Source: Minisyncoccota bacterium
GTDB lineage: Bacteria > Patescibacteriota > Minisyncoccia > Phycocordibacterales > CAJBRS01
Direction: 5' to 3'
NCBI GenBank assembly: GCA_035652395.1
Contig: DASRDX010000012.1
Location: 96,778 to 160,777, forward strand
DNA length: 64,000 nt
Shown: positions 4,717 to 58,938 of the stretch, piece by piece
How the letters are laid out: each line of letters begins with the position of its first letter
Numbering within the stretch: the first letter of the stretch is position 1
Program-made: the position numbers and the translations under genes
The notes under the pieces: model-generated
The model's input: only the letters and a program-made list of their open reading frames with translations
The model's database searches: none
What the model was told of the DNA's origin: nothing

Positions 4717-4744
4717 ACGGCGAGTTCAAAAATGAACTCGCCGT
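4717..4744. terminator. 12-bp perfect hairpin (ACGGCGAGTTCA-aaaa-TGAACTCGCCGT) between tsaE and the GC-rich gene
   Basis: Perfect inverted repeat lying at the end of the convergent minus-strand gene 4771..5643. Confidence 0.6.
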
Positions 4745-4770
4745 ACTGTCAGGATTCGAACCTGAAAGAT

Positions 4771-5643
4771 TTAACCTCGGCGTGGATGGCTACCGGGCGG
4801 TCTTTGCATTGGAGCATGTGGCGCCGATGCATAGTGATTGCCGCTGTTGATCTGATTACCGATGGCAACGGTGATACCGTTGAGGATCCCCCCGAACACA
4901 TTGCCCGAACCGTGCGAATTATATCCGCCGGGTCCCCCGCCGTAACCATAAGGTCTTGGCGGCGGGAACGAATTCGTGGCGTACGATTCGAATCGTCCAG
5001 AAGGTTGTTGCAGACTCGCGACATAAGCTTCCGCTTGCGCGTGCGTCATCTTCACTTCCCGGACATTGCCGTAGCAGTCATGGACGCGAACGATGACACA
5101 ATCAACCGGAGCCTTTCGCAGATGAATCTCGGCGTGGCGCGGTTGTGGCGGTGCGGGTTGTTCCTCCACAAAGGCAATCATGTTCTTGTACGCTTTGCCG
5201 TTACGCATGCATCCATCGATATAGATGGGCTGCTTGGTGGCTGTATCGTAGTAGATCATGGCCGAAGCGCTGAGCGGAACAATTTCCGCCTTGTGAAGCA
5301 TCTGGTTGTAGACCAGCCGCCCCGTCCATCCGAGCTCGGCTGCCGATTTGTATCCGAGCCCTTCCAGGCATTCAGGTCCGGTGTAAGGATGACGTCCTTT
5401 GAAAACGCTGAGCGGGGCATACCCTTGAGGGGTTCCGTAACGGCCACGGCTGACATCGGGTTTCGGCCGGTGAGAGTCGCGGGTCGTTGTGACGGTTGCG
5501 ATCGTCATGTTTTCGCTTGAATCGTTTTGCTCGGCCGAAAGACGGTCGAGTTCGGCCTGAAGCTTGTCTTCGTTGTTTTGGGCCTTGAGGTTATTGACGC
5601 TGGCAAGAGCCAGCAGACTGACAAAGAGCAGAAGCTGTTTCAT
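4771..5643 (-). CDS. secreted hypothetical protein with a Gly-rich C-terminus, encoded in a high-GC island
   Basis: 290 aa. N-terminal signal peptide MKQLLLFVSLLALASV and a C-terminal GYGGGPGGYNSHGSGNVFGG stretch. Local GC is about 58% against about 42% in the flanks, so every frame is open here; this frame is chosen because of the signal peptide. Confidence 0.5.
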   Translation of the reverse strand: MKQLLLFVSLLALASVNNLKAQNNEDKLQAELDRLSAEQNDSSENMTIATVTTTRDSHRPKPDVSRGRYGTPQGYAPLSVFKGRHPYTGPECLEGLGYKSAAELGWTGRLVYNQMLHKAEIVPLSASAMIYYDTATKQPIYIDGCMRNGKAYKNMIAFVEEQPAPPQPRHAEIHLRKAPVDCVIVRVHDCYGNVREVKMTHAQAEAYVASLQQPSGRFESYATNSFPPPRPYGYGGGPGGYNSHGSGNVFGGILNGITVAIGNQINSGNHYASAPHAPMQRPPGSHPRRG

Positions 5644-5719
5644 TTTTTCTTTCCGTGTTGAGGTTTACTGACGTGAAACTGACTTTTCTAGATTATATCA
5701 CTCCTAGAGAAAAAGTCAA

Positions 5720-5750
5720 GGAGGGCGGCTGAGGTCGCCAGCCGCCCTCC
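5720..5750. promoter_or_regulatory. 12-bp GC-rich hairpin (GGAGGGCGGCTG / CAGCCGCCCTCC) in a divergent intergenic region
   Basis: Perfect inverted repeat with a 7-nt loop, lying upstream of both 4771..5643 (-) and pilB (+). Confidence 0.5.
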
Positions 5751-5805
5751 TTCAGCCCCTCCGCCTTTAAAACCCCCCTAAAAAAGGCTATTATTTACCT
5801 AATAA

Positions 5806-9306: not shown

Positions 9307-9837
9307 GTGTCCGGCCACAATAAATGGTCACAAATTAAACATCGAAAAGCTGCCACTGATGCCAAGAAAAGTCAGCTTTTTTCGAAGTTGGGGCGTTTAA
9401 TTACAGTGGAATCCAAAAAGGCGGCCGGCAAGACCAGCTCGCCCAGTTTGGCGGTAGCGATTGAGAAAGCTCGCAAAGAAAATATGCCCAAAGACGTAAT
9501 TGAGCGAGCGATTAAAAAAGGAACGGAAAGCAATACCGGTTCAATGGAAGCCATTACCTACGAAGCATATGGCCCGGGCGGATCAGCCATTATGATTGAA
9601 GTGCTCACTGACAATCGAAATAAATCAGCCCAAGAAATGAAATTTATTCTCTCTAAAAATGACTCTTCGCTTGCCGGCATTGGGGCCGCCAGCTGGGCTT
9701 TTGAAAGAAAAGATCGAGAATGGCTGCCAAAAACTACAGTTCAATTAGAGGATAGCGATTTGGAAAAACTAGAAAAGCTGGTGGATGAGCTTGAAAGTAA
9801 TGAAGATGTTCAGGCCGTTTTCACTAATGTAGAATAA
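9307..9837 (+). CDS. yebC: YebC/PmpR-family transcriptional regulator, shortened
   Basis: 176 aa. N-terminal MSGHNKWSQIKHRKAATDAKK and C-terminal NEDVQAVFTNVE match the family; about 60 aa of the middle domain is missing. Confidence 0.75.
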   Translation: MSGHNKWSQIKHRKAATDAKKSQLFSKLGRLITVESKKAAGKTSSPSLAVAIEKARKENMPKDVIERAIKKGTESNTGSMEAITYEAYGPGGSAIMIEVLTDNRNKSAQEMKFILSKNDSSLAGIGAASWAFERKDREWLPKTTVQLEDSDLEKLEKLVDELESNEDVQAVFTNVE

Positions 9838-9841
9838 TGAT

Positions 9842-10318
9842 ATGAAAATCTTGGCAGTTGATCCGGGGTATGAGCGATTGGGGGTAGCAATTATAAAGAA
9901 GAATCCCGGAGAAAAAGAGCGAGTTATTTATTCCAACTGTTTCAAAACTTCAGCCAAGCAACCCTTTGAAGAAAGGTTACTTTTAATTGGTCAGGAGATT
10001 AAAAGACTGATTAAGGAGTTTGAACCGGCGGCTTTGGCTATTGAAACTTTGTATTTCACCAATAATCAGAAGACTGCCATGCATGTCTCCGAGGTTCGGG
10101 GAGTAGTTACTTACGAAGCACTGTGTGCCAGCATGAAGTTATTTGAATACACCCCTCTTCAAATTAAAGTGGCGGTGACTGGCTACGGTGGCGGCGATAA
10201 AAAGCAGGTTATTTCCATGATCGAGAAGTTGGTGACTATCGATAAAAATATTGCTCACGACGACGAGTACGACGCCATTGCCGTCGGCTTGACTTACTTT
10301 GCCACAGCTCGTCTTTAG
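9842..10318 (+). CDS. ruvC: crossover junction endodeoxyribonuclease RuvC
   Basis: 158 aa. MKILAVDPGYERLGVAI start and the conserved yebC-ruvC adjacency. Confidence 0.8.
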   Translation: MKILAVDPGYERLGVAIIKKNPGEKERVIYSNCFKTSAKQPFEERLLLIGQEIKRLIKEFEPAALAIETLYFTNNQKTAMHVSEVRGVVTYEALCASMKLFEYTPLQIKVAVTGYGGGDKKQVISMIEKLVTIDKNIAHDDEYDAIAVGLTYFATARL

Positions 10319-10392
10319 GAGTAAGGTAAGTAAGTCTCTTCTCAAGCGTCTTAGATTGTAAGGCATTATTTATCAGTTAATCAATTATTAAC

Positions 10393-10656
10393 ATGGCAAC
10401 AATTGTAAACAACCCTCCTCCACAAAATAATGATGGGGGTAGCGGATTCGGTTCAGGTTTAATCATCGGTATTATTATCGTCGTTCTGATCATCTTCTTG
10501 ATCTTCTGGTTCGGAGTAAAAGGAAATAACAGCGCTCCAGCTCCCGCTACAGACACCAATAATGGCAGCACGGTGGTAGTACCGATCCCAACGTATCAGT
10601 CCACTACTAATTCATCTTCAACAACCGTTATTAACAACGGCAGCTCGACAAGATAA
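10393..10656 (+). CDS. small membrane protein with a Thr/Ser-rich tail
   Basis: 87 aa with one strong transmembrane helix LIIGIIIVVLIIFLIFWF; an intrinsic terminator follows. Confidence 0.4.
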   Translation: MATIVNNPPPQNNDGGSGFGSGLIIGIIIVVLIIFLIFWFGVKGNNSAPAPATDTNNGSTVVVPIPTYQSTTNSSSTTVINNGSSTR

Positions 10657-10666
10657 GGACTTATAA

Positions 10667-10699
10667 AGAGGCCGCGCCCAAAGGGCGCGGCCTCTTTTA
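10667..10699 (+). terminator. rho-independent terminator (AGAGGCCGCGCCC-aaa-GGGCGCGGCCTCT followed by TTTT)
   Basis: 13-bp GC-rich stem plus a T-tract. Confidence 0.8.
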
Positions 10700-10741
10700 T
10701 TTCCTTGCTTTTTCCTTAAAAGCGATTAATATCGATTTTGG

Positions 10742-11131
10742 ATGAAAAAGGTCTTTATTGTGGAAGATTATAAAAACATTTTAAAAGGATGGGGTCTTAT
10801 CTGGGAGGCCGATGGCTATGACTTAGAGGTAATACCCGCTTTTACTCTTGAAGAGGCTAATTCCCTTTTAGATCAGGGGATTGACTTCGATCTTGCAGTG
10901 ATCGACGGCCATGTTGGCAAAAACCAACCTTACAACAGCGGAGGTTTGATTCGGCGAATTCGCGCTACGTACTCGGTTCCTATTCTTGCGACTTCCTCCG
11001 AGGTAAAAACGCGGGAACAAATGCAAAAAGATGGATGCAGCGAGGTGGTGGATAAAATGGTTAATATGGCGGTGGTGAACAAGGTGGTGGAAATCCTGGG
11101 ATTAAAGCCGTCGCAACCGTTTCCTGTCTAG
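10742..11131 (+). CDS. stand-alone response-regulator receiver-domain protein
   Basis: 129 aa. KKVFIVEDY (beta1), LAVIDGHVG (the phospho-acceptor Asp position), no output domain. Confidence 0.5.
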   Translation: MKKVFIVEDYKNILKGWGLIWEADGYDLEVIPAFTLEEANSLLDQGIDFDLAVIDGHVGKNQPYNSGGLIRRIRATYSVPILATSSEVKTREQMQKDGCSEVVDKMVNMAVVNKVVEILGLKPSQPFPV

Positions 11132-15748: not shown

Positions 15749-16852
15749 TTACTTATTCATCGGACTAACTAAATAGAGAAATGATCGATCGTTTACTCCC
15801 CGAATTAATAGGGGTTTATTTGGCCCGCTGAAAGTTAGCTGAACACTGTCGGCGTCAATAGACTGAAAGCAGTCATTAATGTATTTATAATTAAAACTAA
15901 TCTCTAAATCTTCTCCCTTAAGAGCGGCTTCCAGTTTGTCCTGACTTTCCCCCACCTCACCATTTCGACTACTTAATTCAAAAAGTTTGTTTTTGGGGGA
16001 CAAAGACAGACTAATCTGATTAAAGTTGTTGGAAAATATATTGGCAATCTTTAAAGCGTTAATTAAATCCTGTTTTAGAATTACCGCTTCGGAGGTCGAT
16101 TCTTTTGGAATAATTTGTTTGTAGTCTGGGAAAATTCCATCCACCACTCGGGAAAATAATCTTATACCGGGAAGTTCGAAAGAAAGTTGATTTTTATTGA
16201 GCGATAATTCCACCTGGGCTTCACCTGTTTGCTCCAAGACGCGCACAATTTCCGGAATGTTTTTAAAAGGAATCAAAATTTGCGAAAAATCTTTTTTGTT
16301 TTTTATTTTTAGTCGCTTTTCGGCCAACCTAAATGAGTCTGTGGCCACAAACACCACCTCATCATGATCTGGGTAAATAAAAACACTAGAAAGCTCTGGC
16401 TTCATGCTGGAAACAGAGGCACTATACCAAACGGATTTAAATCCGCGGATTAAATCCTTGGTGTTAAAAGTGATTTTTTGTCCGTTTTCTACTTTTGGAA
16501 TGGAGGGAAAATCTTGGTGTGGAACAGCTTTAATTAGGGTCTGGTGTCGCCTGGTAGAAACTTTTAAATTTCCTTCTTTTGTTTCAAAGCGAATATTTTT
16601 GTCCTCTAAAGAACTGTTTATGAAATTATTTAGGACGCTCCCAGGCACAGCCACTTCCCCTTTTTCCTCGGTCTTTACCGGCACCTCCAGCTCAATTCCG
16701 ATGTCTAAATTAGTGGCTTTAATTATTAGGTTGTTGGTTTCCGCCACGAAAAGAACACATTTCAAAACCGGCAAAGTGGCGCTTTTCGCAGTAATTTTTT
16801 CAGCTAAAGATATAGCTGTGCTTAATTTTTCTTTCAATCCTTCTAATTTCAT
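15749..16852 (-). CDS. dnaN: DNA polymerase III beta sliding clamp
   Basis: 367 aa with the three-domain clamp pattern; lies downstream of dnaA. Confidence 0.9.
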   Translation of the reverse strand: MKLEGLKEKLSTAISLAEKITAKSATLPVLKCVLFVAETNNLIIKATNLDIGIELEVPVKTEEKGEVAVPGSVLNNFINSSLEDKNIRFETKEGNLKVSTRRHQTLIKAVPHQDFPSIPKVENGQKITFNTKDLIRGFKSVWYSASVSSMKPELSSVFIYPDHDEVVFVATDSFRLAEKRLKIKNKKDFSQILIPFKNIPEIVRVLEQTGEAQVELSLNKNQLSFELPGIRLFSRVVDGIFPDYKQIIPKESTSEAVILKQDLINALKIANIFSNNFNQISLSLSPKNKLFELSSRNGEVGESQDKLEAALKGEDLEISFNYKYINDCFQSIDADSVQLTFSGPNKPLLIRGVNDRSFLYLVSPMNK

Positions 16853-17087
16853 ATTGTTAACAAGTATTAATATTTCTCTTTATAAAATTTATTATTGCTA
16901 TTATGGGTGTGGATTTGTGTATAACTTTTTTAAACCATAATTTAGAACACCTTTTTCAATTCCTTTAATTTTTTATTGGGGATAATTGAATTATACAATC
17001 TTCCAATATTTAACCTTTTATAAGTTTATGTTGTTTTCCCTAAAATTCTCCCCACCAGCACAACTACTTTCCCCATCCTTTACCTCC
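16853..17087. promoter_or_regulatory. AT-rich dnaA-dnaN intergenic region; candidate oriC segment with DnaA-box-like 9-mers
   Basis: TGTGTATAA (1 mismatch from TGTGGATAA), TGTGGATTT and TTATACAAT. The region is strongly AT-rich. Confidence 0.4.
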
Positions 17088-18419
17088 CTATATCAACGCC
17101 CTAATCTGATTTAGCTCCTGGGCCAGTAAATTATCCACCTTCAACTCATTTTTTATTTTCTCACAGGAATGAATAACAGTGGTGTGGTCGCGGCCACCCA
17201 ATTTTTGACCAATGGTCGGATAAGAGACGTTAAAATCTTCCCGCAAAATATACATTGATAACTGTCTTGGCCGAACCACTTCTTTCCGCCGAGTCTTGTC
17301 GTAAATACTATCCTCCTCCACATTATAAAAGCCAGCCACAATCTTAATAACGTCTTTCACCGAAACATTTTTAGTCGGTTTGGCACTGTTTTTAATGAGA
17401 GTTTTGATTTCCAGAAGATTTAATTCCCGCCCACGGACCTCGGACTGATGAATGAGGCTGTTTAAAATTCCTTCAAGCTCACGAATGTTTCCTTGAATGG
17501 AAGTGGCTAAATACTGCGAAACCTCCTGCGAAAGACTGAAATTGTGAGCCCGACTTTTAGTTTCCAGGATAGCTACTCGCGACTCGTGATCGGGCGGAGG
17601 AATATCAACAATCATACCGGCCACAAACCGAGACTTTAAACGCTCTTCCAGGTTCGGAATAAAATTAGGATGAATATCGGAGGAGAAAATAATCTGTTTG
17701 TTGTTGTCATGAAGGTGGTTAAATAAATGAAATAACTCTTCCTGACACTTGTCTTTGTTGGAAATAAACTGGATATCGTCCATGATCAGGACATCGTATT
17801 TTCGGTATTTGTCCTTAAAATTGTTCATTTTATTGGTCTGGATGTGGTTGACGACGTCTTGAGCGAATTTTTCAGAAGTAATGTAGTAAATTTTTTTGTT
17901 ACTCTGAATTTTCAAGTGATTGCCAATAGCCTGCATCAAATGAGTTTTACCGAGGCCGGTATTTCCATAAATGAAAAGCGGATTGTAAGCGATAGGTTTT
18001 TTAATAATGGCCTGGGCGGCAGCGTACGCCAATTCATTAAACGGACCGACTACAAAAGAATCAAAAGTGTAACGCGGGTTAAGATTATCTTCTTTGTTGA
18101 TATAAAGATCTGAAAAAGGCAGCTCTTTAGTCGGTTGCGGCGCAAAAGAAGCTTCCTGTTTAGGAGCGGTGGTTGAAGTAATGGTGTATTCGAGCGAGCG
18201 GATATTTTCTTGGAGCGAGCGGAGAATCCTTAAAATATTTTTATGGAATTTATTGACTAACCAGTCTTTAACAAAAGCGCTAGGGACGGCTAAAGTTACC
18301 ACCCCGTCTTCTTGTTTAAGAATATAGGTGGGTTTAAACCAGATGTTAAAGTTTCCTTTTGATACCGAAAGCTCAATTTCAGCCAGCACCTTGTCCCAAA
18401 GTTTCTTGTTATCTAACAT
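17088..18419 (-). CDS. dnaA: chromosomal replication initiator DnaA
   Basis: 443 aa. AAA+ Walker A GNTGLGKTHL and a C-terminal DNA-binding domain. Confidence 0.95.
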   Translation of the reverse strand: MLDNKKLWDKVLAEIELSVSKGNFNIWFKPTYILKQEDGVVTLAVPSAFVKDWLVNKFHKNILRILRSLQENIRSLEYTITSTTAPKQEASFAPQPTKELPFSDLYINKEDNLNPRYTFDSFVVGPFNELAYAAAQAIIKKPIAYNPLFIYGNTGLGKTHLMQAIGNHLKIQSNKKIYYITSEKFAQDVVNHIQTNKMNNFKDKYRKYDVLIMDDIQFISNKDKCQEELFHLFNHLHDNNKQIIFSSDIHPNFIPNLEERLKSRFVAGMIVDIPPPDHESRVAILETKSRAHNFSLSQEVSQYLATSIQGNIRELEGILNSLIHQSEVRGRELNLLEIKTLIKNSAKPTKNVSVKDVIKIVAGFYNVEEDSIYDKTRRKEVVRPRQLSMYILREDFNVSYPTIGQKLGGRDHTTVIHSCEKIKNELKVDNLLAQELNQIRALI

Positions 18420-18732
18420 AGTTTAAACACCAGATAAAGATTTAATAAATTTTTCTCATTATAGCCCTCTCTCCAAAATAGCAATCTTGTGAACAGTTTA
18501 TAAGTGTGTTGATAAATTGTGGATAGTGGAGCCGACAGAGTTTTTGGCAGACTGTCAAACCAGCCACTTTTTGAATTTTAATTGTATAGCAAGAAACACT
18601 AATAAATTTTTGTATTCGAAATATTCAGAGAATACAAGAAGTTTTAACTTTACGGTAAAGAGTCAGCAAGCTCCGACATTCGAACAAAGAGATTTTTTTG
18701 GCACAGAGCTAATTTTGAGCTATACTACTTCC
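18420..18732. promoter_or_regulatory. dnaA upstream region / rpmH promoter region; second candidate oriC segment
   Basis: TTGTGGATAG (complement cTATCCACA, 1 mismatch from the DnaA-box consensus), AT-rich tracts, and a TATACT -10 element ahead of rpmH. Confidence 0.4.
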
Positions 18733-18867
18733 ATGTCACGAACTTATCAACCGAAAAAGCGAAAAAGAGCTAAAACTCATGGTTTTTTGGTCAGGAATCG
18801 AACGAAAGGCGGGCGCAAAACCGTTAAAAGACGACGCCAGAAAGGCAGACGACGACTAACTGTTTAA
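18733..18867 (+). CDS. rpmH: 50S ribosomal protein L34
   Basis: 44 aa: [18 protein letters not shown]...GRRRLTV. The six-frame ORF 18517..18867 is trimmed to the internal Met. Confidence 0.9.
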
Positions 18868-18922
18868 ATAACCCATCTCCTAAATCTCCTAGATTTTTAG
18901 AGGACTCTACCTCTAATCTATT

Positions 18923-19246
18923 ATGACTAAAATACAGCGCACCAGCCGCGAACTCTTCAAGAGAGTGATGAAAAAAGGGCGAGGACGAAACTCAAAACAC
19001 CTATCTTTAAAATTTTTACCCCTTCAGGCTGATGAAAAAAGTTTTGTCGCCGTAGTTTCCAAAAAAAATTATAAAAGAGCGGTGGATCGTAATAAATTGA
19101 AGCGCCGGGCGCGGGCCATTTTCCGGAAATTAGAGGAAAATGCCGCGCCCGGCTCCTACATTCTTTTTTTAAAATCCAAATCCCTCCTCCTCACTTATCA
19201 AGAGCTTGAAAAAGAAGTGGCCGATTTAATCGGAATTAATAAATAA
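18923..19246 (+). CDS. rnpA: ribonuclease P protein component
   Basis: 107 aa basic protein in the canonical rpmH-rnpA-yidC arrangement. Confidence 0.85.
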   Translation: MTKIQRTSRELFKRVMKKGRGRNSKHLSLKFLPLQADEKSFVAVVSKKNYKRAVDRNKLKRRARAIFRKLEENAAPGSYILFLKSKSLLLTYQELEKEVADLIGINK

Positions 19247-19280
19247 GATAGGCTCGTGGCATTCATGTTACTATAATTAA

Positions 19281-48046: not shown

Positions 48047-48967
48047 ATGACCCTTGAAGATTTAAAAAGAGATTTCTTGGATCACTTGGAGATTGAAAAA
48101 GGCCGCAGCTTGAAAACTCGTGCCAATTACAGCCACTATTTAGACAAATTTCTATTTTTCGCCAAACTGAAAAACCCCGCCGATATTAGCGAGGACCTCA
48201 TTCGGGAATACCGTCTGTGGCTTAACCGTCAAAGTGACGGGAAGGCCGGCACTTTAAAAAAGCGCACTCAAAACTATTATTTAATTGCTCTCCGAGCCTT
48301 TTTGAAATATCTGGCCAAACGAAAAGTCTCATCTCTCTCTCCAGACGTTATTGAATTGGCGAAAGTGCCGGAGCGCTCGCTTGATCTGATTGGAGCGGAA
48401 GACTTAAAGAGATTGATGAAGGCTCCCGACGATGAAAAGGACGAATTAAAAAAACTCAGAGATAAAGCCATTTTAGAGCTCTTTTTTTCTACCGGTCTCC
48501 GAGTTTCAGAGCTCTGTTCCCTCTCTCGCGATCTAGATCTCCGCAAAGACGAATTCTCAATTCGCGGCAAAGGTGAAAAGGTGAGAGTGGTTTTTCTTTC
48601 GAATGAAGCGAAAGAGGCGATAAAAAAGTATCTAGATAAACGGGTAGATGTGGAAGATGCTTTGTTTGTTCAGCTGAAGAGCCCGATTGGTAACAAAACC
48701 GAAGCCAAAGAATTGCATCGGTTAACTGCGCGTTCAATTGAAAGAATTGTTAAACATTACGCTATTAAAGCTGGTATTTCAAAAAAAGTGACGCCGCATG
48801 TTCTTCGCCACAGTTTCGCCACCGATCTTTTGGAGAATGGGGCAGATTTGCGAGCCGTTCAAATGCTTCTTGGCCACGCCAACATCACTACTACCCAAAT
48901 TTATACTCACATTACTGACAAACACCTGAAGGAAATTCACAAGAATTTCCATAATAAGAAAAAATAA
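48047..48967 (+). CDS. xerD: tyrosine recombinase XerC/XerD family
   Basis: 306 aa. C-terminal HVLRHSFATDLL...LLGHANITTTQIYTH with the catalytic R-H-R-Y residues. Confidence 0.8.
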   Translation: MTLEDLKRDFLDHLEIEKGRSLKTRANYSHYLDKFLFFAKLKNPADISEDLIREYRLWLNRQSDGKAGTLKKRTQNYYLIALRAFLKYLAKRKVSSLSPDVIELAKVPERSLDLIGAEDLKRLMKAPDDEKDELKKLRDKAILELFFSTGLRVSELCSLSRDLDLRKDEFSIRGKGEKVRVVFLSNEAKEAIKKYLDKRVDVEDALFVQLKSPIGNKTEAKELHRLTARSIERIVKHYAIKAGISKKVTPHVLRHSFATDLLENGADLRAVQMLLGHANITTTQIYTHITDKHLKEIHKNFHNKKK

Positions 48968-49635: not shown

Positions 49636-50406
49636 ATGAAAATCATCTCATGGAACGTTAACGGCATTCGAGCTTGGCATAAAAAGGGCTATTTAGAGTG
49701 GTTTTTAAAGGAATCTCCCGATATTTTCTGTCTTCAGGAAACCAAAGCTCATCCGGAGCAGCTTACGGAGGAACTGCGAAACCCAAAGGGCTACCACTCC
49801 TATTTCGATCATTCAAAGGGACGTAAAGGCTATAGCGGCGTCGCGGTTTACAGCAAAATTAAGCCGGAAAAGATCGAATACGGCCTGGGAGTAAAGGAAT
49901 TAGACCAAGAGGGGCGTTTCATCGCTCTGCATTTCAAAAAATTTGTCCTGATTAACACCTACTTCCCTAATGGCGGTGGCGGTCCGGTTCGCCTTAAATA
50001 CAAACTTGATTACTACAAGGCGTATTTAAAATACGCCGATAATTTAAGAAAAAAAGGCCAAAAAATCATCTTTTGCGGAGATATCAATACTGCTCATACC
50101 GAGATCGATCTGGCCCGCCCTCGTGAAAACGTTTCACATACAGGATTTCTGCCTATAGAAAGGGCGTGGTTAGATAAGGTAATAGAACATGGTTACATTG
50201 ATGTCTTTCGTCACTTTTACCCCCATAAAACTGGCGCTTACACCTACTGGGATTCTTACAGTTTTGCTAGGGATCGAAACGTCGGTTGGAGAATTGATTA
50301 TTTCTTCGTTAGTCCGGATCTAATCAAAAAAGTCAAAAATATGGCTATTTTAAGCGACGTTTTTGGCTCGGACCATTGTCCTATTCTTTTAGAAATCGAC
50401 ATATAA
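49636..50406 (+). CDS. xth: exodeoxyribonuclease III
   Basis: 256 aa. MKIISWNVNGIRA and the EEP-family motifs. Confidence 0.9.
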   Translation: MKIISWNVNGIRAWHKKGYLEWFLKESPDIFCLQETKAHPEQLTEELRNPKGYHSYFDHSKGRKGYSGVAVYSKIKPEKIEYGLGVKELDQEGRFIALHFKKFVLINTYFPNGGGGPVRLKYKLDYYKAYLKYADNLRKKGQKIIFCGDINTAHTEIDLARPRENVSHTGFLPIERAWLDKVIEHGYIDVFRHFYPHKTGAYTYWDSYSFARDRNVGWRIDYFFVSPDLIKKVKNMAILSDVFGSDHCPILLEIDI

Positions 50407-50767
50407 GCAGACTTCTAAGTTATCCCCAGCCTTGTCCTTTACATGTCCTTTAGAAAGCCTTATCATAAAGGACAGATTCTAGCAGCGAACGTTATTAATC
50501 CCTCTTGACGCAAGCTTGCTAAAAGTTCGTTCCACATAAAGGACATTTTGTAAGATATTTTCTCGGTTGAATTCCCAAACAAATTTTTTACCAATTGGCA
50601 GACGAGTGTTTTCTCCGGAAAATTCTCTCCTGCTAAATTACCTCTTGGATTCAAACCCGTGGAAACTTCACTCGATGTCACTTTATGCTTCAAAAGCCGC
50701 ATCGCGCCTTCATCAATAGCCGCCTGCGGCTTTTCTCTTTCTCCTCCTAGGGTTGAGAAAGGAAAGG

Positions 50768-50860
50768 ATAGTCTAACGAATGAAAATAACCTCTCTTTTG
50801 CCGAGAATTTGGTCCTCCAACCTCTCGGAAAAGAGAGGTTATTGAAATAAGTTAGACTAT
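50768..50860. other. roughly 40-bp imperfect long hairpin overlapping the cca stop codon
   Basis: ATAGTCTAAC...ATAACCTCTCTTTTGCCGAGA pairs with TCTCGGAAAAGAGAGGTTAT...GTTAGACTAT. Confidence 0.5.
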
Positions 50861-52350
50861 TGTACCCAATATTTCTTTCTTATTTCCTTCACTTCTTCTT
50901 CCTGTAATCTCTCCTTCCTTTCCTTTCCTTTCTCCCCTATCTTTTTTAATTGCTCCTCAGTTAATTTGCTTAAATCTACTGCCCTCTCATAAAGGTGTTC
51001 TTTAGTATTCAAGGAAGGATCTTCCAAAACTTCTTCAAGCAAGGCATGCAAAATATAGCCAATCTTTGGTCCGGAAGGTAAGTTTGCCACCTCCATAATT
51101 TTACTGCCATCAATTTTTAACATCCCGACTGAAACCGGGTCATGCATCACCTCTTCAATCATTGATTTGTATTTTCTCAAGCGATACGGATCTTCTTTTG
51201 GTCTTCCCGTACCAATACGGTCGCAAATTCTGAGATTCATAAGATTCCAGACGTTCTCCTTACCCACATTTTTAAGCAAGCGTCTGACAGCCGACAAAGT
51301 AATTTGGTCGGGATCGGAGAAAAACATGTGCCAACGAATTAGTTTAGTTACTTCTTCAATTAATTTATTCGGAAAGCGTAAATCATTTAAAATTTTAGCA
51401 GCCACACGAGCTCCCACTACATCATGCCCGTGAAAAGTCCAGTCTTTTTTCTCGTTTGACCAGCGTCTTGATTGAGGCTTGGCAATATCATGAAGCAATG
51501 CGGCTAACCGAATTTCTAGCGACCACCCCTTGTCCGCCGCCGCTTGCAAGCTTTTTAATAAGTGTTCAAAGACGTCATAAGCGTGGGCTTGGTTTTGTTC
51601 AATTCCGGAAGCTTTCTCCAGTTCAGGGATAATAAACTTCAACACACCTAGGTTTTTAGCCGTTTTTAAGGCATCAGCCGGTTTAGCGGACATTAAAATT
51701 CTAACGAACTCTTCTCGTATTCTCTCTCGGGCAATGTTCTTCAGGAGACCCGCATCATTTTTAATAGCCTCTTCAGTTTCTGGGGCAATCTTAAATCCAA
51801 GTTCAGCTGAGAGTCTGATGGCTCGTAAAATTCTTAAACCATCTTCTTTGAATCTCTCATTCGGATCTCCTACGGTTCTAACAATTTTCTTTTCAATATC
51901 TTTTTGTCCTTGATAAAGGTCAACCACTTCCCCATCATAATTTTCTTTAGCTGTTGCAACAATTTTCAGAGCAATGGCATTGATAGTAAAATCCCGTCTC
52001 TTTAGATCATCTTCCAGATTTTGACTAAATGTAACGGAGTCAGGATGTCGATTATCCGAATAAGTGGCTTCCAGACGATACGGAGTCATCTCCACCACTT
52101 TCAAAGTTTCATCCTCCGCTTCTTCATTAACTACTCCAACTGTTCCATAATCGTTTTCATAGAAGGTTTTATCGAAATTTTGAATGATCTCTTCGGGCGT
52201 GGCGTTTGTAGTAACATCCCAGTCTTTCGGCTTGCGCTCCAAAAGCAAATCACGAACACAGCCACCGATTAAATAGGCTTCAAAACCAGCCTCTTCTAAT
52301 TTCCTAGTTATTCGTGAAACTTCCGGCGGAATGGAGAATTTTCTAGACAT
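50857..52350 (-). CDS. cca: CCA-adding tRNA nucleotidyltransferase with an HD domain
   Basis: 497 aa. N-terminal GGCVRDLLL...DWDV nucleotidyltransferase domain and an HD domain (LLHDIAKP). Confidence 0.85.
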   Translation of the reverse strand: MSRKFSIPPEVSRITRKLEEAGFEAYLIGGCVRDLLLERKPKDWDVTTNATPEEIIQNFDKTFYENDYGTVGVVNEEAEDETLKVVEMTPYRLEATYSDNRHPDSVTFSQNLEDDLKRRDFTINAIALKIVATAKENYDGEVVDLYQGQKDIEKKIVRTVGDPNERFKEDGLRILRAIRLSAELGFKIAPETEEAIKNDAGLLKNIARERIREEFVRILMSAKPADALKTAKNLGVLKFIIPELEKASGIEQNQAHAYDVFEHLLKSLQAAADKGWSLEIRLAALLHDIAKPQSRRWSNEKKDWTFHGHDVVGARVAAKILNDLRFPNKLIEEVTKLIRWHMFFSDPDQITLSAVRRLLKNVGKENVWNLMNLRICDRIGTGRPKEDPYRLRKYKSMIEEVMHDPVSVGMLKIDGSKIMEVANLPSGPKIGYILHALLEEVLEDPSLNTKEHLYERAVDLSKLTEEQLKKIGEKGKERKERLQEEEVKEIRKKYWVQ

Positions 52351-52417
52351 TTAATGATGATATTTTATTATAGCTTTGGCCTTTTCACTAATTTTGAAGT
52401 ATTATATTTCAACTATT

Positions 52418-52489
52418 GCTCCCGTGGTGAAATGGATATCACGCGACGCTTCGGACGTCGTATTGTGGGTTCGAGTCCTGCCGGGAGCG
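52418..52489 (+). tRNA. tRNA-Arg (anticodon TCG)
   Basis: Cloverleaf read by eye: acceptor GCTCCCG/CGGGAGC, anticodon stem CGACG/CGTCG, loop CTTCGGA, T-loop TTCGAGT (the T-stem has two G-T pairs). No encoded CCA. Confidence 0.65.
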
Positions 52490-52679
52490 CAAGCCAGAAA
52501 ATCTGAACTTCTTCAGATTTTTGCGGACTTGCGCTGGCCGGAGCGATGTCGCCCGGTTCTAGGCGACCGCGAGGCGGGGTCGCGAACACTTAGTATTTTG
52601 CAAGATTTAAGGCCGCAGCAAAAGACTTAGTGATTCGTGACCGCAAAACCAGTTTTAAGGTTATATAATAACAATATCC

Positions 52680-52750
52680 GCGGGTATGGTTTAGTGGTAG
52701 AACACATCCTTGCCAAGGATGAGACGGGAGTTCGATTCTCCCTACCCGCA
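52680..52750 (+). tRNA. tRNA-Gly (anticodon GCC)
   Basis: Acceptor GCGGGTA/TACCCGC, anticodon stem CATCC/GGATG with loop TTGCCAA, T-arm GGGAG-TTCGATT-CTCCC. No encoded CCA. Confidence 0.8.
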
Positions 52751-53176
52751 CATTAAAGACATTTCTAGTGCCAGATGGCGGACGAGAATCTTTGAAAGAG
52801 TTCGATAACTCTATGATACCAAGACAGCTAACTCTAAGATCTAGGAAAGAGTTTTTATCATATTTGTCTGTCTACCTGCTCTAAATTCCAACAGGTCTGG
52901 CAAATGGGATTTGTCTTATATTTGTCCTAAACCCAAAAATCGAAATGGCTTAAAATAAGGCTAATTTTCAATTTGCTGTGGATAACTCGGGGGATATGTG
53001 TATAAAGGACATAAAAATGACTTTTATGACCTTTTGTATAGGAGAAACATAGAATAAATAGGGTATTTATGTTTCACATGAAACGTTACTTATGAAACTT
53101 TCCTTTAAGACTTCGAACTCTCAACCTTTATGAAAAATTTAAGAAAATTTTAGGCCCATTTTGATTTAATTGTTTC

Positions 53177-53557
53177 ATGAATAACCAAGGTATAGGACAT
53201 ATTGGAGAAAGCTTAGCCTGCAAATTCTTATGCAATAAAGGATTTAACATCATTGGGCGGAATTTCTTGAGAAAATGTGGAGAAATAGATGTCATAGCTC
53301 GAAAAGAAGGTGTCCTGCACTTTATTGAGGTCAAAACTGTTACTTGTGAAAACCTGAATGTTATTCATGAAACAAATACCTACCGTCCCGAGGATAATAT
53401 TCATTTATATAAAACAGAGCGACTAAAAAGAGTAATTCAAGTTTATTTAGTAGAAAACTACATTAAACAGAATTGGCAATTTCATGCCATTACGGTTTTA
53501 TTCGATCCTATAAGAAGGGAAGCCAAGATAGATTTCTTAGAAAACCTTGTCCTTTAG
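53177..53557 (+). CDS. yraN: YraN-family (UPF0102) endonuclease-fold protein
   Basis: 126 aa. GHIGESLACKFL...IIGRNF...GEIDVIARK...FIEVKT family pattern. Confidence 0.7.
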   Translation: MNNQGIGHIGESLACKFLCNKGFNIIGRNFLRKCGEIDVIARKEGVLHFIEVKTVTCENLNVIHETNTYRPEDNIHLYKTERLKRVIQVYLVENYIKQNWQFHAITVLFDPIRREAKIDFLENLVL

Positions 53558-53619
53558 CGGGGTGTCTTTTAGGAAAATTAAAAAATGTGTGTTAGACTTT
53601 TTCAATCTTTATTTTTTAA

Positions 53620-53691
53620 CGGGGCGTGGTGTAACGGCTAACATTCTTGATTTGGGATCAAGCGACTCCGGGTTCGAATCCCGGCGCCCCG
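53620..53691 (+). tRNA. tRNA-Pro (anticodon TGG)
   Basis: Acceptor CGGGGCG/CGCCCCG, anticodon stem CTTGA/TCAAG with loop TTTGGGA, T-arm CCGGG-TTCGAAT-CCCGG. No encoded CCA. Confidence 0.8.
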
Positions 53692-53703
53692 AAAATTGCA
53701 AAG

Positions 53704-53760
53704 CAATTTTCGTCGACCGGGATTCGAACCCGGAAAACTAACGCCCGGGTCGAATAATTC
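53704..53760 (-). other. tRNA-like fragment: an inverted copy of the tRNA-Pro T-arm
   Basis: CCGGGATTCGAACCCGG is the reverse complement of the tRNA-Pro T-arm; the rest of a cloverleaf is absent. Confidence 0.4.
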
Positions 53761-53839
53761 TATGGTAGCAAGTCTGTAAACTCGAATGTTCGGATAATGT
53801 TACACATTTTCCCGGCGATCAAATCTAAATAAAAACAAA

Positions 53840-53970
53840 CCCCGCAAGACGTCTTGCGGGGGGCTGTAGAAAAGATTGCATTGCCCGGTAGGCTGCCACC
53901 TTATCTTTCTTTGGCTCAAAACGGTCAGGTTGCCATCCGGCCTGTCAAAAGGCCAACCGTGTATAAGCTT
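53840..53970 (-). ncRNA. candidate minus-strand small RNA (promoter to terminator)
   Basis: Perfect 11-bp palindrome CCCCGCAAGAC/GTCTTGCGGGG at 53840-53861 followed on the minus strand by a T-tract; a minus-strand TTGACA (53999-54004) and TATACT (53977-53982) sit 16 nt apart. Confidence 0.3.
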
Positions 53971-54077
53971 GTAAATAGTATACATTATATATTAGGAATG
54001 TCAAGAAATTCTTGTGTTTTATAATTTTTGGTATAGTATTGTTTCTGTTAATTTAGTATTAACTTTTTATTTTTAAC

Positions 54078-54956
54078 GTGAAAATCGTTACTCATAGTGG
54101 GAGTTTTCATCAAGACGAACTCTTTGCTTTAGCCGCTCTGCAGATGGTTTATCCTGATGCCGAGATTATTCGAACTCGTGATCCGGAAATTATTTCCAAG
54201 GCGGACATTGCTGTTGATATTGGCGGCATTTATGATCCGGCCAGTAATCGTTTTGACCATCATCAGGAAGGGGGAGCGGGAAGACGCGGCAAGAATGGCA
54301 TGCCGTATGCTTCTTTCGGTTTGGTTTGGAAAAAATTTGGCCGGCAAATTTGCGATGGGCGCGCCGACATAGCTGATCTGGTGGATCGAAAAATGATTCA
54401 GGCTATCGATGCGGCCGACAACGGAGTGATGGTTTACGCCCCAGTTAATCGTGAGATTCAGCCGTATTTATTTGATAACTTCTTGAACGCCATTACTCCG
54501 ACGTGGCGCGAAGGTAAAAGTATTGATGATGCTTTCAAACAAATTTTGAGCATCGTGAGATTAGTGCTTGAAAAAGAAATTGAGAAAGCTAAATTCTTTT
54601 TTGAAGAAACTGAATTGGTCCGCCAAGCTTATCGGGAATCGGAAGACAAAAGAATTATTGTCCTTGACCACCCGTATCCTTGGAAGAGTGTTTTAACAAA
54701 ATATCCGGAACCGCTTTTTGTTATCTATCAGGATCAAAATACTGATGAATGGGTGATTATGGCAGTCAAGAAAGATCCGCGAGCTTTTATTTATCGAAAA
54801 CTTTTTCCGGCCAATTGGGCAGGGAAGATCGGCAAGCCTCTGGCAGATGAAATCGGCATTCCGGATGCGGTTTTTTGCCACAACAAACGCTTCATTGCCA
54901 AAGCCTGGTCCAAAGAAAGCGCTATAAAGATGGCTAAAATAGGCCTTAATACGTAG
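54078..54956 (+). CDS. MYG1-family (UPF0160) metal-dependent hydrolase/exonuclease
   Basis: 292 aa. GTG start, THSGSFHQDE N-terminal motif, DIGG...FDHHQ, and an AADNG motif. Confidence 0.75.
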   Translation: MKIVTHSGSFHQDELFALAALQMVYPDAEIIRTRDPEIISKADIAVDIGGIYDPASNRFDHHQEGGAGRRGKNGMPYASFGLVWKKFGRQICDGRADIADLVDRKMIQAIDAADNGVMVYAPVNREIQPYLFDNFLNAITPTWREGKSIDDAFKQILSIVRLVLEKEIEKAKFFFEETELVRQAYRESEDKRIIVLDHPYPWKSVLTKYPEPLFVIYQDQNTDEWVIMAVKKDPRAFIYRKLFPANWAGKIGKPLADEIGIPDAVFCHNKRFIAKAWSKESAIKMAKIGLNT

Positions 54957-55052
54957 AGCTCTTGATTTTTACGTTAAGTATGATATAATGCAAAAAGAAG
55001 CTATTCATTCCGAATAGTCCTCACGAAACAATTTACAAAAGGAGATCGTACT

Positions 55053-55763
55053 TTGATACCCAAATTTAATCTTAAGGGCAGCATTCCAGCGCTGGTCTTA
55101 AAATGGTCAGTGACTAATCCTCACCTTGTACCGCTTGGAGCAGTTTTTACTCGCAGTAAGAGTAAAAAAGATTATCAGAAACGGGCCGAAAGGGTTTTCG
55201 GTATATCCACCGTCGATGAAATAGGAAACTCTGGATTTGAATTGCCGGAAACCAAAATCGGACGAGTCGGAATTCAGAGCGTAGAGAATCTGATGAATCG
55301 ATTTTTACGGATCGAACATCGGATCAGCAGGAAACCCGATCACATTCCCAAGCAGGCCATCTTGTTTTTCTTTGTTCTCAATGAAAAAGATTTACAGGAG
55401 GCTGTGCCCATGTCCGGCGAGCACGCTCAAGCCCTCAGATGGTTTGCCATGCAAACCTTCGAAGGCTGTCGAATCTGGAACAATGGTGAACGAGTAGTCA
55501 TTGATTTGGTCAAGCGTTTGCCGGAACAGAAAGCGGTGCACTGTATGGATTTACGTTCAGACAGTAAGCATGGCTGGCAGCTCTGTTGGGTGCCTCTTCC
55601 GGAAGGTGTTAATCCCGCGCCCACAGCGACACATCCAAAATTCCTGACAAAGGAGTATGTGGATTATCAACGGCGGGCAGAGGAAAAACTTTTCCAGCAA
55701 ACTCGCAGGTCTCTCGAAAACCTGTTTGAGGTTGCCGACAGGCAAGTGGCTATGGCCAGATAA
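55053..55763 (+). CDS. hypothetical protein encoded in a GC-rich segment (TTG start)
   Basis: 236 aa. TATAAT plus AAGGAG ribosome-binding site 8 nt ahead of the TTG; GC about 50%; followed by a strong terminator. No motifs recognised. Confidence 0.45.
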   Translation: MIPKFNLKGSIPALVLKWSVTNPHLVPLGAVFTRSKSKKDYQKRAERVFGISTVDEIGNSGFELPETKIGRVGIQSVENLMNRFLRIEHRISRKPDHIPKQAILFFFVLNEKDLQEAVPMSGEHAQALRWFAMQTFEGCRIWNNGERVVIDLVKRLPEQKAVHCMDLRSDSKHGWQLCWVPLPEGVNPAPTATHPKFLTKEYVDYQRRAEEKLFQQTRRSLENLFEVADRQVAMAR

Positions 55764-55769
55764 AAATTC

Positions 55770-55802
55770 AAACCGCGCGGAAACGAAGTTTCCGCGCGGT
55801 TT
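55770..55802 (+). terminator. 15-bp hairpin AAACCGCGCGGAAAC-gaa-GTTTCCGCGCGGTTT followed by TTT
   Basis: Perfect stem plus T-tract. Confidence 0.8.
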
Positions 55803-55835
55803 TTGCTTAAGCGTTTATATAATATAATCAACAGA

Positions 55836-57176
55836 ATGTTATCTCCACGCAGTATCGTCTATAGCGGCATTTTTCTCACGGAAGATTCAAGAAAAATTCT
55901 TTTAGAAAAAATACGGCCTCTATACGAAAATATTTTTGCTCATCATGTTACGGTCAAATATCGTCCCAACAGCGAGGAGATTTTTAATTTTCAGCCTGGA
56001 AAAGAATATGAACTGGAAATTGTCGGGGTTGCTTCTGACGGGAAAAGTCAGGCGGCGGTAATAAAAGGTTTTAAGACGGAAAGTGAGGTCACTCACGTCA
56101 CCATTTCAACTTTGGGGGAGACAAAGCCAAATTACTCAAAAGATCTTCTAAAGTCTGCCAAGATTGAAAATTTAAAACCGTTTAAAATAAAAGGGAAATA
56201 CGGCTTTTTTTGTGACGGACCATATTTTTTTGAATTCCCGACGTTTAATATTTCCACTGTTCAAATTCCTACCCGGCCGCAGCCCGATACAATTATCGCC
56301 CTGTTTCTTTTAAATGAATATGCTTCTTCTATTTTTCAAGGTATAGATTCGGCCGAGATTAAGTGTAATCCAATCTTTCCTAAGGATGAGACCTTTGAAA
56401 GCTTGCTTCAAAAAGGAATACTGACTATTGATTTTGAACAAAGCATATTCGATCATCATAATAAAGATTTTTCTACAGCTTCTGAAAGTGTTGCCGAGTG
56501 GTGCAATATCAGAAAAAATAAAGAGATTCAAAAACTTTTGGAATTTGCCAAACGCTCGGAAGAAGGTAAGGGGACTATTTCATCGGACGCTATTGATAAA
56601 ATGTTTGGTTTAGATGGCTTGATTATGGCCTTAAATCGCGTTCACTTTGCTGATCCAAAAGAAGTTTTTAGAATCGTGGAACCTATTTTAGCCGGTCATC
56701 TGAGGGATATAACTGAAAAATTAATTAATACCCCTGTGGTCTGGGCTGAATTACTAACCAATGGAAAAGGTAAAATAATTAAATGCCATACAAACATTGG
56801 TAATTCAAAAATTGCTTTTGCTGAGTCTGATAGTCAGAACTTGCCAGGGTTTTTACGGTCATACCAAGGCGAAAGATGTGACTTATTCGTTCAAAAACTC
56901 AGCTCTGGTCATATAAATATATTAAGCAAAGCCAACAATAACCTTGATCTATCCAAACTTGCCGGGATCATTAGACAAGCGGAAGCCTTAATACAAAAAC
57001 GACCAATCAATTCTGCAGATTTAAGACAGGCCGGCCGCCTTCCGGAAATTCCTGAATGGTATTATGACAAAATTACGAATTCTATTCTGAATGGTGGAAG
57101 AAACGTCGGAGATGTTAAACCAACTAGTATTTCATGGGGAAGTTTCGAAGCTCTAATTAAAAAATCTTTTGAATAG
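55836..57176 (+). CDS. two-domain protein: N-terminal 2H-phosphoesterase-like domain (two H-x-T-x motifs) and C-terminal divergent MYG1-like domain
   Basis: HHVTVKY and THVTIST lie about 57 aa apart. The C-terminal region aligns by eye to the upstream MYG1 paralog (ILTIDFEQSIFDHHNKDF against IAVDIGGIYDPASNRFDHHQ; ASESVAEW against ASFGLVWK) but lacks the HSGxFHxDE motif. The start is moved to the ATG at 55836 because a TATAAT sits at 55823-55828. Confidence 0.5.
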   Translation: MLSPRSIVYSGIFLTEDSRKILLEKIRPLYENIFAHHVTVKYRPNSEEIFNFQPGKEYELEIVGVASDGKSQAAVIKGFKTESEVTHVTISTLGETKPNYSKDLLKSAKIENLKPFKIKGKYGFFCDGPYFFEFPTFNISTVQIPTRPQPDTIIALFLLNEYASSIFQGIDSAEIKCNPIFPKDETFESLLQKGILTIDFEQSIFDHHNKDFSTASESVAEWCNIRKNKEIQKLLEFAKRSEEGKGTISSDAIDKMFGLDGLIMALNRVHFADPKEVFRIVEPILAGHLRDITEKLINTPVVWAELLTNGKGKIIKCHTNIGNSKIAFAESDSQNLPGFLRSYQGERCDLFVQKLSSGHINILSKANNNLDLSKLAGIIRQAEALIQKRPINSADLRQAGRLPEIPEWYYDKITNSILNGGRNVGDVKPTSISWGSFEALIKKSFE

Positions 57177-57470
57177 ATGTTTCAGAAAAACAAAGAAGAT
57201 TTTATTTGTGAGAAGTGCGGGCATGAAGTGAAAGGGACGGGATACACCAATCATTGTCCGAAATGCTTATGGAGCAAGCATGTGGATATTAATCCCGGGG
57301 ATCGTCTGAGTGAATGTGGAGGGATGATGGAGCCGGTACGGGTGGAGGGACGCACCGGCTCTTATGATTTTGTCCACCGATGTTTACGCTGTGGCTACGA
57401 AAAGAGAAACAAGGTTTCGCCCGAAGACGACTTTCAGAAAGTGATTGAAATTTCTAGGAAGGCTGATTAA
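57177..57470 (+). CDS. RNHCP-domain zinc-ribbon protein
   Basis: 97 aa. CEKCGHE...TNHCPKCLW...CLRCGYE. Its ATG directly abuts the stop codon of the upstream gene. Confidence 0.55.
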   Translation: MFQKNKEDFICEKCGHEVKGTGYTNHCPKCLWSKHVDINPGDRLSECGGMMEPVRVEGRTGSYDFVHRCLRCGYEKRNKVSPEDDFQKVIEISRKAD

Positions 57471-58857: not shown

Positions 58858-58928
58858 GCGGGATTAGTTTATTGGTAAAACATCAGTTTTCCAAACTGAG
58901 GTGGGGAGTTCGATTCTCCCATCCCGCA
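58858..58928 (+). tRNA. tRNA-Gly (anticodon TCC)
   Basis: Acceptor GCGGGAT/ATCCCGC, anticodon stem TCAGT/ACTGA with loop TTTCCAA, T-arm GGGAG-TTCGATT-CTCCC. No encoded CCA. Confidence 0.75.
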
Positions 58929-58938
58929 CTTTAAAACA

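Follow-up and report, generated by a model that had tools for sequence, protein, structure and literature searches.

Does a run of tRNA genes, non-coding DNA, and an orphan gene mark a genomic island, or can it belong to the core of a chromosome? The question is raised by positions 52.4–57.5 kb of the window, the 64 kb of a Paceibacteria chromosome (candidate phyla radiation, CPR; mean GC content 42.6%) analysed here. A preliminary description had taken part of this stretch as acquired at a tRNA hot spot. We find that the stretch is probably two unlike neighbours, a conserved core with a protein-binding hub and a variable slot concerned with RNA-end processing. The core at 52.4–53.7 kb (cca, the gene of the CCA-adding enzyme, with tRNA-Arg, tRNA-Gly, yraN, and tRNA-Pro) would be old and vertically inherited. 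The slot at 53.7–57.2 kb would extend from tRNA-Pro to RNHCP and the protease gene, its content having passed from genus to genus as genes were gained, lost, or locally rearranged in the ordinary way, and not by a site-specific integrative element.

The cca gene served as the synteny anchor. Thirty-four related loci (designated L001, L002, and so on) were retrieved and compared by tblastn and ARAGORN, and synteny was read only in relatives whose sequence is long enough, about 20 Paceibacteria relatives. The nearest relatives are metagenome-assembled Paceibacteria/Parcubacteria (CPR) genomes; identity of the CCA enzyme to that of the window is 78% for L001 and 74% for both L002 and L036. The common order is cca, tRNA-Arg(TCG), tRNA-Gly(GCC), yraN, tRNA-Pro(TGG), the slot, RNHCP, a trypsin-like protease, tRNA-Gly(TCC), HU, and RNase Y. 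It is kept in L001–L015, L023, L036, and L038, genomes of Taylorbacteria, Adlerbacteria, and Zambryskibacteria included. Relatives whose CCA enzyme is as little as about 58% identical still show it, so that yraN, the tRNA genes, and the spacers count as core and not as accessory DNA. Synteny and spacer alignment both identify the tRNA genes, yraN, and the spacer between tRNA-Gly and yraN as the best conserved part of the locus.

The gene inventory of the preliminary description stood up well in this part. All three tRNA genes were recovered by ARAGORN and Rfam (57–74 bits), and none encodes its CCA end. The non-coding stretch, put earlier at about 430 bp, is a 425-bp spacer (52752–53176) with no credible open reading frame (ORF). 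The gene assigned to the YraN family matches PF02021 with 62.9 bits (cut-off 23.6), has the PD-(D/E)xK residues D38 and E51-V52-K53 in its translation, and is syntenic in relatives. YraN is a single-stranded DNA endonuclease that, with ComM, resolves transformation D-loops (bioRxiv 10.1101/2024.02.06.579203). The orientation of tRNA-Arg relative to cca varies among relatives, with repeated flips across the clade. In L001 and L002, tRNA-Arg, tRNA-Pro, and tRNA-Gly(TCC) (58858–58929 in the window) are each inverted in place, the flanking protein genes being unflipped; in L006, two tRNA-Gly isoacceptors have exchanged positions.

Variation is confined to the slot 3′ of tRNA-Pro. MYG1, the orphan, and a 2H-DHH fusion occupy the slot in the window, in L036, and in L035, with RNHCP directly downstream in L036 too; L035 is a short 2.4-kb contig on which the slot genes are visible but the outer slot edges are not. 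L001 and L002 have MYG1, TruD (5e-61), and an unrelated GC-rich gene (323 and 338 amino acids, GC 53.5% and 60.4%). The slots of L004, L006, and L007 contain MutY/Nth-like genes, assigned by eye from the HhH-GPD motif with no family model, and other genes. The more distant L038 reads cca, yraN, a GC-rich unknown gene, 2H-DHH, RNHCP. The nearest relatives carry alternative cassettes and not an empty site; in L009 the slot is empty. RNHCP itself would be part of the backbone in most relatives; it adjoins the protease gene in L001, L002, L004, and L007 and tRNA-Gly(GCC) in L006. The cassette of the window (MYG1, a fast-evolving GC-rich protein, and the 2H-DHH fusion, which would be translationally coupled to RNHCP) is common to at least two other genomes. 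Coordinates are collected in Table 1.

Table 1. Features of the locus and of the dnaA region, in window positions
Feature	Position	Strand	Details
Probable dnaN	15749–16852	-	
dnaA	17088–18419	-	35 kb from the spacer
Left cis-element cluster, in the 450-bp spacer beyond cca	50420–50545		DnaA-box-like TTATCCCCA at 50420–50428 and four TGTCCTTTA
cca, CCA-adding tRNA nucleotidyltransferase	50857–52350	-	Pfam PolyA_pol 3.7e-34, plus RNA-binding and HD domains
tRNA-Arg(TCG)	52418–52490	+	ARAGORN, Rfam; no encoded CCA
Structured element, 106 nt, 57% GC	52537–52642	+	Fold z -3.8
tRNA-Gly(GCC)	52680–52751	+	ARAGORN, Rfam
Conserved block CTGTGGATAAnTnnGGGATATGTGTATAAAGGACA with two tandem DnaA boxes	52976–53011	-	Alignment of 13 spacers
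parS-like palindrome TGTTTCACATGAAACG	53070–53085		2 mismatches to TGTTTCACGTGAAACA; sole match in window
yraN (UPF0102), PD-(D/E)xK endonuclease	53177–53557	+	Pfam 3.7e-17, NCBIfam YraN 1e-22
tRNA-Pro(TGG)	53620–53692	+	ARAGORN, Rfam; left edge of variable slot
tRNA-Pro-derived scar	53691–53820		Trailer hairpin 53691–53711; inverted T-arm copy 53717–53734; degenerate direct 3′-end copy 53810–53820
Window-specific insert, about 150 bp	53835–54004	-	Promoter-like TTGACA-16-TATACT, 54004–53977; intrinsic-terminator-like hairpin, 53861–53840
MYG1/UPF0160 (DHH-type 3′-5′ RNA exonuclease family)	54078–54956	+	Pfam 5.3e-72; PDB MYG1 structures 4e-33
Orphan, lineage-restricted, 236 amino acids	55053–55763	+	TTG start; promoter-like TTGATT-16-TATAAT, 54962–54989; hairpin 55770–55802
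2H-DHH fusion, 457-amino-acid ORF	55803–57176	+	NCBI start is ATG 55836, 446 amino acids
RNHCP zinc-ribbon protein	57177–57470	+	Pfam 1.6e-29; PF12647 102.2 bits, cut-off 24

The spacer between tRNA-Gly and yraN (GC 32.7%, with 33.9% for yraN) is, judging from its motifs, a conserved predicted binding hub; we infer that DnaA and a ParB-type protein would bind there. In the alignment of homologous cca–yraN spacers, the block CTGTGGATAAnTnnGGGATATGTGTATAAAGGACA aligns in 13 of 13 sequences. Its first DnaA box (TTATCCACA, 52977–52985) is the only perfect box in the 64 kb and is perfect in 12 of the 13 spacers. The second box (TTATACACA, 52997–53005), which matches in eight, overlaps a 9-mer, TGTCCTTTA, at 53003–53011. 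The 16-bp palindrome lies near the parS consensus TGTTNCACGTGAAACA, with two mismatches here and one or two in relatives. Allowing up to two mismatches, relatives have 10 such sites in the homologous spacers; another 13 lie no farther than about 2.5 kb away, and L015 alone counts six. These 23 sites in the 276 kb of cca loci searched compare with none in the 606 kb of 80 metagenomic dnaA loci of relatives. Towards yraN, the 40-mer at 53127–53166 has a GC content of 20%.

All six perfect copies of TGTCCTTTA in the window fall within 50433–53556, where 0.49 would be expected by chance; the rightmost (53548–53556) forms the 3′ end of yraN. Four belong to the cluster beyond cca, two on the forward strand in tandem with an 11-bp period (50433 and 50444) and two on the reverse strand (50466 and 50537). 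Where this cluster has its DnaA-box-like sequence, a perfect TTATCCACA stands in L001, L004, L005, L006, L007, and L009. Across the syntenic loci there are 75 copies of the 9-mer, all inside cca or within about 1.6 kb of it (16 in L007), and more distant genomes without the synteny have none. The extended consensus is the 12-mer aTGTCCTTTAta, and spacings between neighbours favour 11–12 and 21–24 bp. Perfect copies also lie inside the coding sequence of cca in L007 (six, at 9338–10936), L003, L004, L010, L011, and L015; the array is thus not restricted to intergenic DNA. A reading of the spacer as a pseudogene of the 2H-like gene that L036 has there was rejected, tblastn matching only the tRNA overlap.

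In the slot, the identification of MYG1 was confirmed by Pfam and by the solved MYG1 structures; the match to PF03690 (243.5 bits) covers profile positions 1–316 of 318. Its counterparts, with 76–87% identity, lie 3′ of tRNA-Pro in L001, L002, and L036; in L035 the gene precedes the orphan. MYG1 is a 3′-5′ RNA exonuclease (PMC6582341). The gene that had been called 2H/MYG1-like does encode a 2H domain, and it encodes a DHH-superfamily domain as well; a specific kinship to MYG1 was not established, as hhalign of the DHH domain against the MYG1 of the window gave a 21% probability over 22 columns around DIGG..FDHH, and none of 33 family members matched PF03690 at E ≤ 1. The N-terminus has the paired motifs of 2H phosphoesterases (H48-x-T50 and H98-x-T100), and the C-terminal 310 or so residues carry PTRPQPDT and the D217-H218-H219 triad of the DHH superfamily. 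The structure model of the fusion is confident (pLDDT 89.6); a sequence search of the PDB with the fusion family returned no match. In NCBI the protein is a hypothetical protein of a Candidatus Paceibacterota metagenome-assembled genome.

The DHH-type domain defines a family of about 100 sequences for which there is no Pfam model, and all members with a taxon name or a traced locus are Patescibacteria. Members stand alone or have a 2H domain fused at the N-terminus (two kinds) or at the C-terminus (PF02834/PF13563). The RNHCP gene, correctly named in the preliminary description, has its start codon directly after the fusion stop codon, and it also lies directly 3′ of the 2H-DHH gene in L036 and L038. 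In L036 a standalone gene of 199 amino acids (2469–3068) lies between tRNA-Pro and MYG1, where the window is non-coding; it shows two HxS/T motifs by eye (FHLSV and PHLTLF), like the N-terminus of some DHH fusions, and has no Pfam match.

The orphan has the TTG start, the ribosome-binding site (AGGAG, 8 nt upstream), and the promoter-like site and terminator hairpin of its own that had been described; the hairpin is a perfect one of 15 bp. Orthologues are found in L035 (P0002, 53% identity) and L036 (51%), the range being 51–55%, in the same order of MYG1, orphan, and 2H-DHH. The orphan is a real coding gene, with its frame kept over 230 codons in three genomes. Among 5.8 billion proteins two matches were found (the copy of the window itself and P0002), and an exhaustive HMMER scan of 1.84 billion representatives gave two (P0002 and the distant relative P0106); P0106, the only distant relative, adjoins a 2H/tRNA_lig_CPD gene. 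The public gene call of L036 at 4045–4647 (reverse strand) is an antisense ORF of the orphan orthologue at 4075–4767 (forward strand), so the protein database lacks the orthologue and the family seems even smaller than it is. Scans with Pfam, PHROGs, and PADLOC gave no match to the orphan, and NCBIfam gave a single weak one below threshold.

The GC content of the orphan, given earlier as about 50%, measures 47.3%; 7.5% of windows of equal size are as GC-rich or more (92.5th percentile). GC-rich genes stand directly upstream of a DHH-like gene, or of RNHCP in L001 and L002, in several lineages, with an excess of up to 16 percentage points over the locus (L038, 4112–4921; L039, 4043–4891; L040, 4097–4957; L042, 4251–4898; L001, 5406–6377; L002, 5007–6023). 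No Pfam match was recorded or detected for these genes, and no similarity between lineages was detected. Two proposed kinships of the orphan were rejected, one to the GC-rich gene of L001 and L002 (hhalign probability 0.3%) and one to the GC-rich genes that precede DHH-like genes in L038–L042, to which it shows no relation.

The variable slot is where a genomic island would have to be sought, and the checks suggested with the preliminary description (composition, synteny, and att repeats) were run on it. Insertion of an island site-specifically at tRNA-Pro, carrying MYG1, the GC-rich gene, and the 2H/DHH-RNHCP pair, appears very unlikely. The locus does resemble tRNA-targeted islands of tyrosine integrases, which are bounded by attL/attR copies of the tRNA 3′ end, in that variable content starts directly 3′ of a tRNA gene and part of the tRNA 3′ end is repeated downstream. 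The empty slot of L009 also speaks for an insertion. The inverted T-arm fragment noted earlier is a perfect 18-nt copy of tRNA-Pro 53667–53684, and the degenerate direct copy of the 3′ end reads tcccggcgatc. These copies 3′ of tRNA-Pro count against the reading as core and slot, and an ancient integration or rearrangement there is conceivable. The direct repeat is degenerate, however, and lies about 118 nt from the tRNA; the 3.5-kb cargo is outside the 130 bp or so that it encloses. When the terminal 13–25 nt of each of the four tRNAs were used in a fuzzy search, the paralogous tRNA-Gly gene alone was found, and the far cargo boundary showed no direct repeat of a tRNA 3′ end. An att pair made of the two tRNA-Gly 3′ halves (91% over 32 nt) was rejected; both are complete paralogous tRNA genes, conserved in relatives. 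The scar is better preserved in L035 and L001, and in L001 the block of tRNA-Pro and scar is inverted; it is a record of old small rearrangements at tRNA-Pro, and the cargo lies outside it.

No integrase or recombinase was detected when every slot gene was scanned with Pfam. The tyrosine recombinase at 48047–48967 lies outside the stretch, is Xer-like, and is syntenic in relatives whose sequence reaches that position. PHROG and PADLOC scans of the cargo gave no match of note, only weak ones to families of unknown function, and neither the orphan nor the fusion family has a relative on viral contigs. Composition, which had been taken to point to acquisition, is ordinary over 54–57.5 kb (tetranucleotide z from -1.3 to +0.2); the sole deviant part of the stretch is the AT-rich 52751–54000 (z 2.7). 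The orphan has a mild GC excess and hardly any relatives, as an imported gene might, but its diverged orthologues keep the excess (47, 51, and 56% versus 43, 43, and 46% for their loci), which argues for a maintained property rather than a recent import. The order of the cargo is common to three genomes, one of them the 2.4-kb contig, with a divergence similar to that of the flanks, and other genera have housekeeping genes (MutY/Nth-like, TruD) in the slot. Of the acquisition claim, variable content 3′ of tRNA-Pro and a lineage-restricted orphan remain; the tRNA genes, yraN, and the 425-bp spacer turned out to be conserved, and integrase, att repeat, and composition signal were not found. The integration-island reading is mostly refuted, and the variable slot is real and reflects ordinary cassette turnover. 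For genome scanning, the lesson is that a tRNA cluster with empty DNA and an orphan gene can be core chromosome architecture and not an island.

What the cassette would do can be read from its domains. Patescibacteria have a very reduced RNase repertoire. The 2H domain would open 2′,3′-cyclic phosphate RNA ends, the DHH domain and MYG1 would dephosphorylate or trim RNA 3′ ends, and the neighbouring CCA-adding enzyme would rebuild the tRNA 3′ ends, whose CCA is encoded by no local tRNA gene. We infer that healing and trimming of RNA 3′ ends beside the CCA-adding enzyme is the most economical functional reading; such a route is suggested by the 2H-DHH family together with its partner RNHCP and its neighbour MYG1. 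The fusion shares with known end-healing enzymes (2H: LigT/ThpR, CNPase, tRNA-ligase CPD; DHH: NrnA, MYG1) the two HxT motifs with a CNPase-like fold and the DHH motif with a DHH/DHHA1-like fold, and its neighbours are MYG1, cca, and tRNA genes. It differs from them in its DHH-type family, so far found only in Patescibacteria and having invariant motifs of its own (PTRPQPDT, RDDxxGKGTxSxDxLDRxFG, and EWYYDxxTNSxxNGG), in the three fusion arrangements with 2H, in the coupling to RNHCP, and in the fast-evolving GC-rich gene upstream. The structure model of the orphan was not usable (AlphaFold2 pLDDT 34). That the fusion and its partners instead degrade nucleotide second messengers (cyclic oligonucleotides, pApA/pGpG) and take no part in RNA-end repair seems improbable.

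The hub in the core is a candidate centromere-like or DnaA-binding locus, possibly oriC. If boxes and palindrome were merely transcriptional operators of yraN and the tRNA genes, with no role in replication or segregation, they should stay with these genes, and the elements do keep their place before yraN even in L014, where that gene is rearranged; DnaA is also known as a transcription factor at other loci (PMC13438810). The operator explanation is nevertheless unlikely. The 9-mers also occur in the spacer beyond cca, at the yraN 3′ end, and in the cca coding sequence (L007, with its 16 copies), the palindrome fits the ParB site consensus with one or two mismatches in many genera, and up to six parS-like sites clustered within 2.5 kb are more than an operator needs. 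The systems used for comparison were oriC and the DnaA-box clusters of Bacillus subtilis, oriC of Escherichia coli, which lies 42 kb from dnaA, and datA and DARS of E. coli. As in bacterial origins and centromeres, a perfect TTATCCACA and an R2-type TTATACACA box stand in tandem with a further conserved box across cca, giving a bipartite look, a 16-bp parS-type palindrome enriched at this one locus lies beside them, the surroundings are AT-rich, and the local GC skew changes sign. The locus is unlike bacterial origins in its distance from dnaA, its few boxes, its flanks of cca, tRNA genes, and yraN, and its phased, clade-specific aTGTCCTTTAta arrays, which match no binding site known to us.

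It is possible, if doubtful, that the cca–yraN spacer is oriC itself, at a distance from dnaA as in E. coli. In that case, and this detail is equally tentative, the box pair would nucleate DnaA, the phased 9-mers would bind an accessory origin factor, and parS would load the partition/SMC machinery. Conservation of the perfect box across genera, co-location of the parS-like sites with the box pair, and the 20% GC 40-mer agree with such a role, and so does the skew. Summed along the window, the GC skew is lowest at 52.2–52.3 kb. Skew at third codon positions is negative for nearly all genes over 33–52.4 kb regardless of strand, which misfits an origin at dnaA (17–18 kb), and mostly positive over 54–59 kb. 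The sign switches at the box in eight of nine cca loci and in 12 of 24 dnaA loci.

Several observations weigh against an origin in the spacer. The local skew switch coincides with a divergent gene orientation, only 11.5 kb of the window lies to the right of the spacer, and from 59 kb onward the skew is mixed. The boxes are few, two or three in number. An array of DnaA-trios, the mark of the basal unwinding system (BUS), should lie within about 16 bp of a box (PMC8287927); none was seen beside the box pair when 52940–53060 was read by eye, and on neither side of the boxes there do as many as three NAN trios follow one another in register. No parA/parB signature (GERR, KGGxGKT) was found in a real ORF of the 64-kb window. 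Relatives' dnaA genes have perfect-box clusters of their own, concentrated immediately before dnaA and within 300 bp after it (n = 80), and their dnaA–dnaN spacers hold more perfect boxes, so the cca–yraN spacer may not be the origin. Because perfect boxes cluster around dnaA in relatives, the dnaA–dnaN region of the window, the classical position of oriC, is a serious candidate. In the window, 15749–19280 contains five one-mismatch DnaA boxes, an AT-rich dnaA–dnaN spacer, and an 860-bp ORF-poor region upstream. In the 606 kb of dnaA loci there is neither a parS-like site nor an enrichment of the 9-mer. Extended to the Paceibacteria, the proposal would place origin and centromere in the cca–tRNA–yraN locus, tens of kilobases from dnaA, with the DnaA-box pair, parS, and phased aTGTCCTTTAta arrays bound by an origin factor and a structured RNA co-transcribed in the adjacent tRNA spacers; we consider this a conjecture with a minority chance of being right. 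A full-text literature search returned no mapped origin or centromere for CPR/Patescibacteria among the 15 best-ranked of 364 papers, and the conserved locus with its DnaA boxes, parS-like sites, and 9-mer is a concrete, testable candidate for these bacteria.

The structured element lies in the spacer between tRNA-Arg and tRNA-Gly, which is 189 bp long here and 30–90 bp in the closest relatives. Behind a 3-bp closing helix come a short helix that carries a variable hairpin and, after it, a long hairpin, GGUCGCG...CGUGACC. The same fold is found in seven copies from five loci. In the alignment of these copies 97.7% of the cells are paired, as compared to 81.5% after shuffling and 29–41% in slid controls, and 11 of 19 pairs show compensatory changes, a result reached by none of 500 shuffles. 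In 0.93 Mb searched with a covariance model, 11 copies were found, none of them outside the cca–tRNA–yraN locus; they come from six loci (0–5 per locus). The element is on the same strand as the neighbouring tRNA genes in the copies for which these were checked. Rfam was searched with gathering thresholds over the whole window and with permissive E-values over 52300–55100 and 50300–50900; the tRNAs alone matched, and the element has no match. Short GC-rich hairpins in variable copy number are likewise known as repetitive extragenic palindromes and bacterial interspersed mosaic elements (REP/BIME) and as spacer RNAs of tRNA operons. The element differs from these in its co-orientation with the adjacent tRNA genes, its restriction to one locus in all sequence searched, junction sequences conserved across genera, compensatory stem changes, and the lack of an Rfam family. 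The covarying 106-nt element is a candidate new RNA family.

Next to the scar, the insert at 53835–54004 is absent from L035, L036, and L001. Its promoter-like site matches at 11 of 12 positions, its fold z is -2.6, and Rfam has no match to it; a small RNA of about 135 nt is a candidate product. A long imperfect hairpin (50768–50860; 32-nt arms, 84% complementary) lies just 3′ of the cca stop codon; segments about 90% identical to it occur in L001, and Rfam gave no match. The strongest compositional outlier of the window is 4501–6000, with GC up to 57% and a tetranucleotide z of 4.6, where long ORFs overlap on both strands (4732–5520, forward; 4771–5643, reverse).

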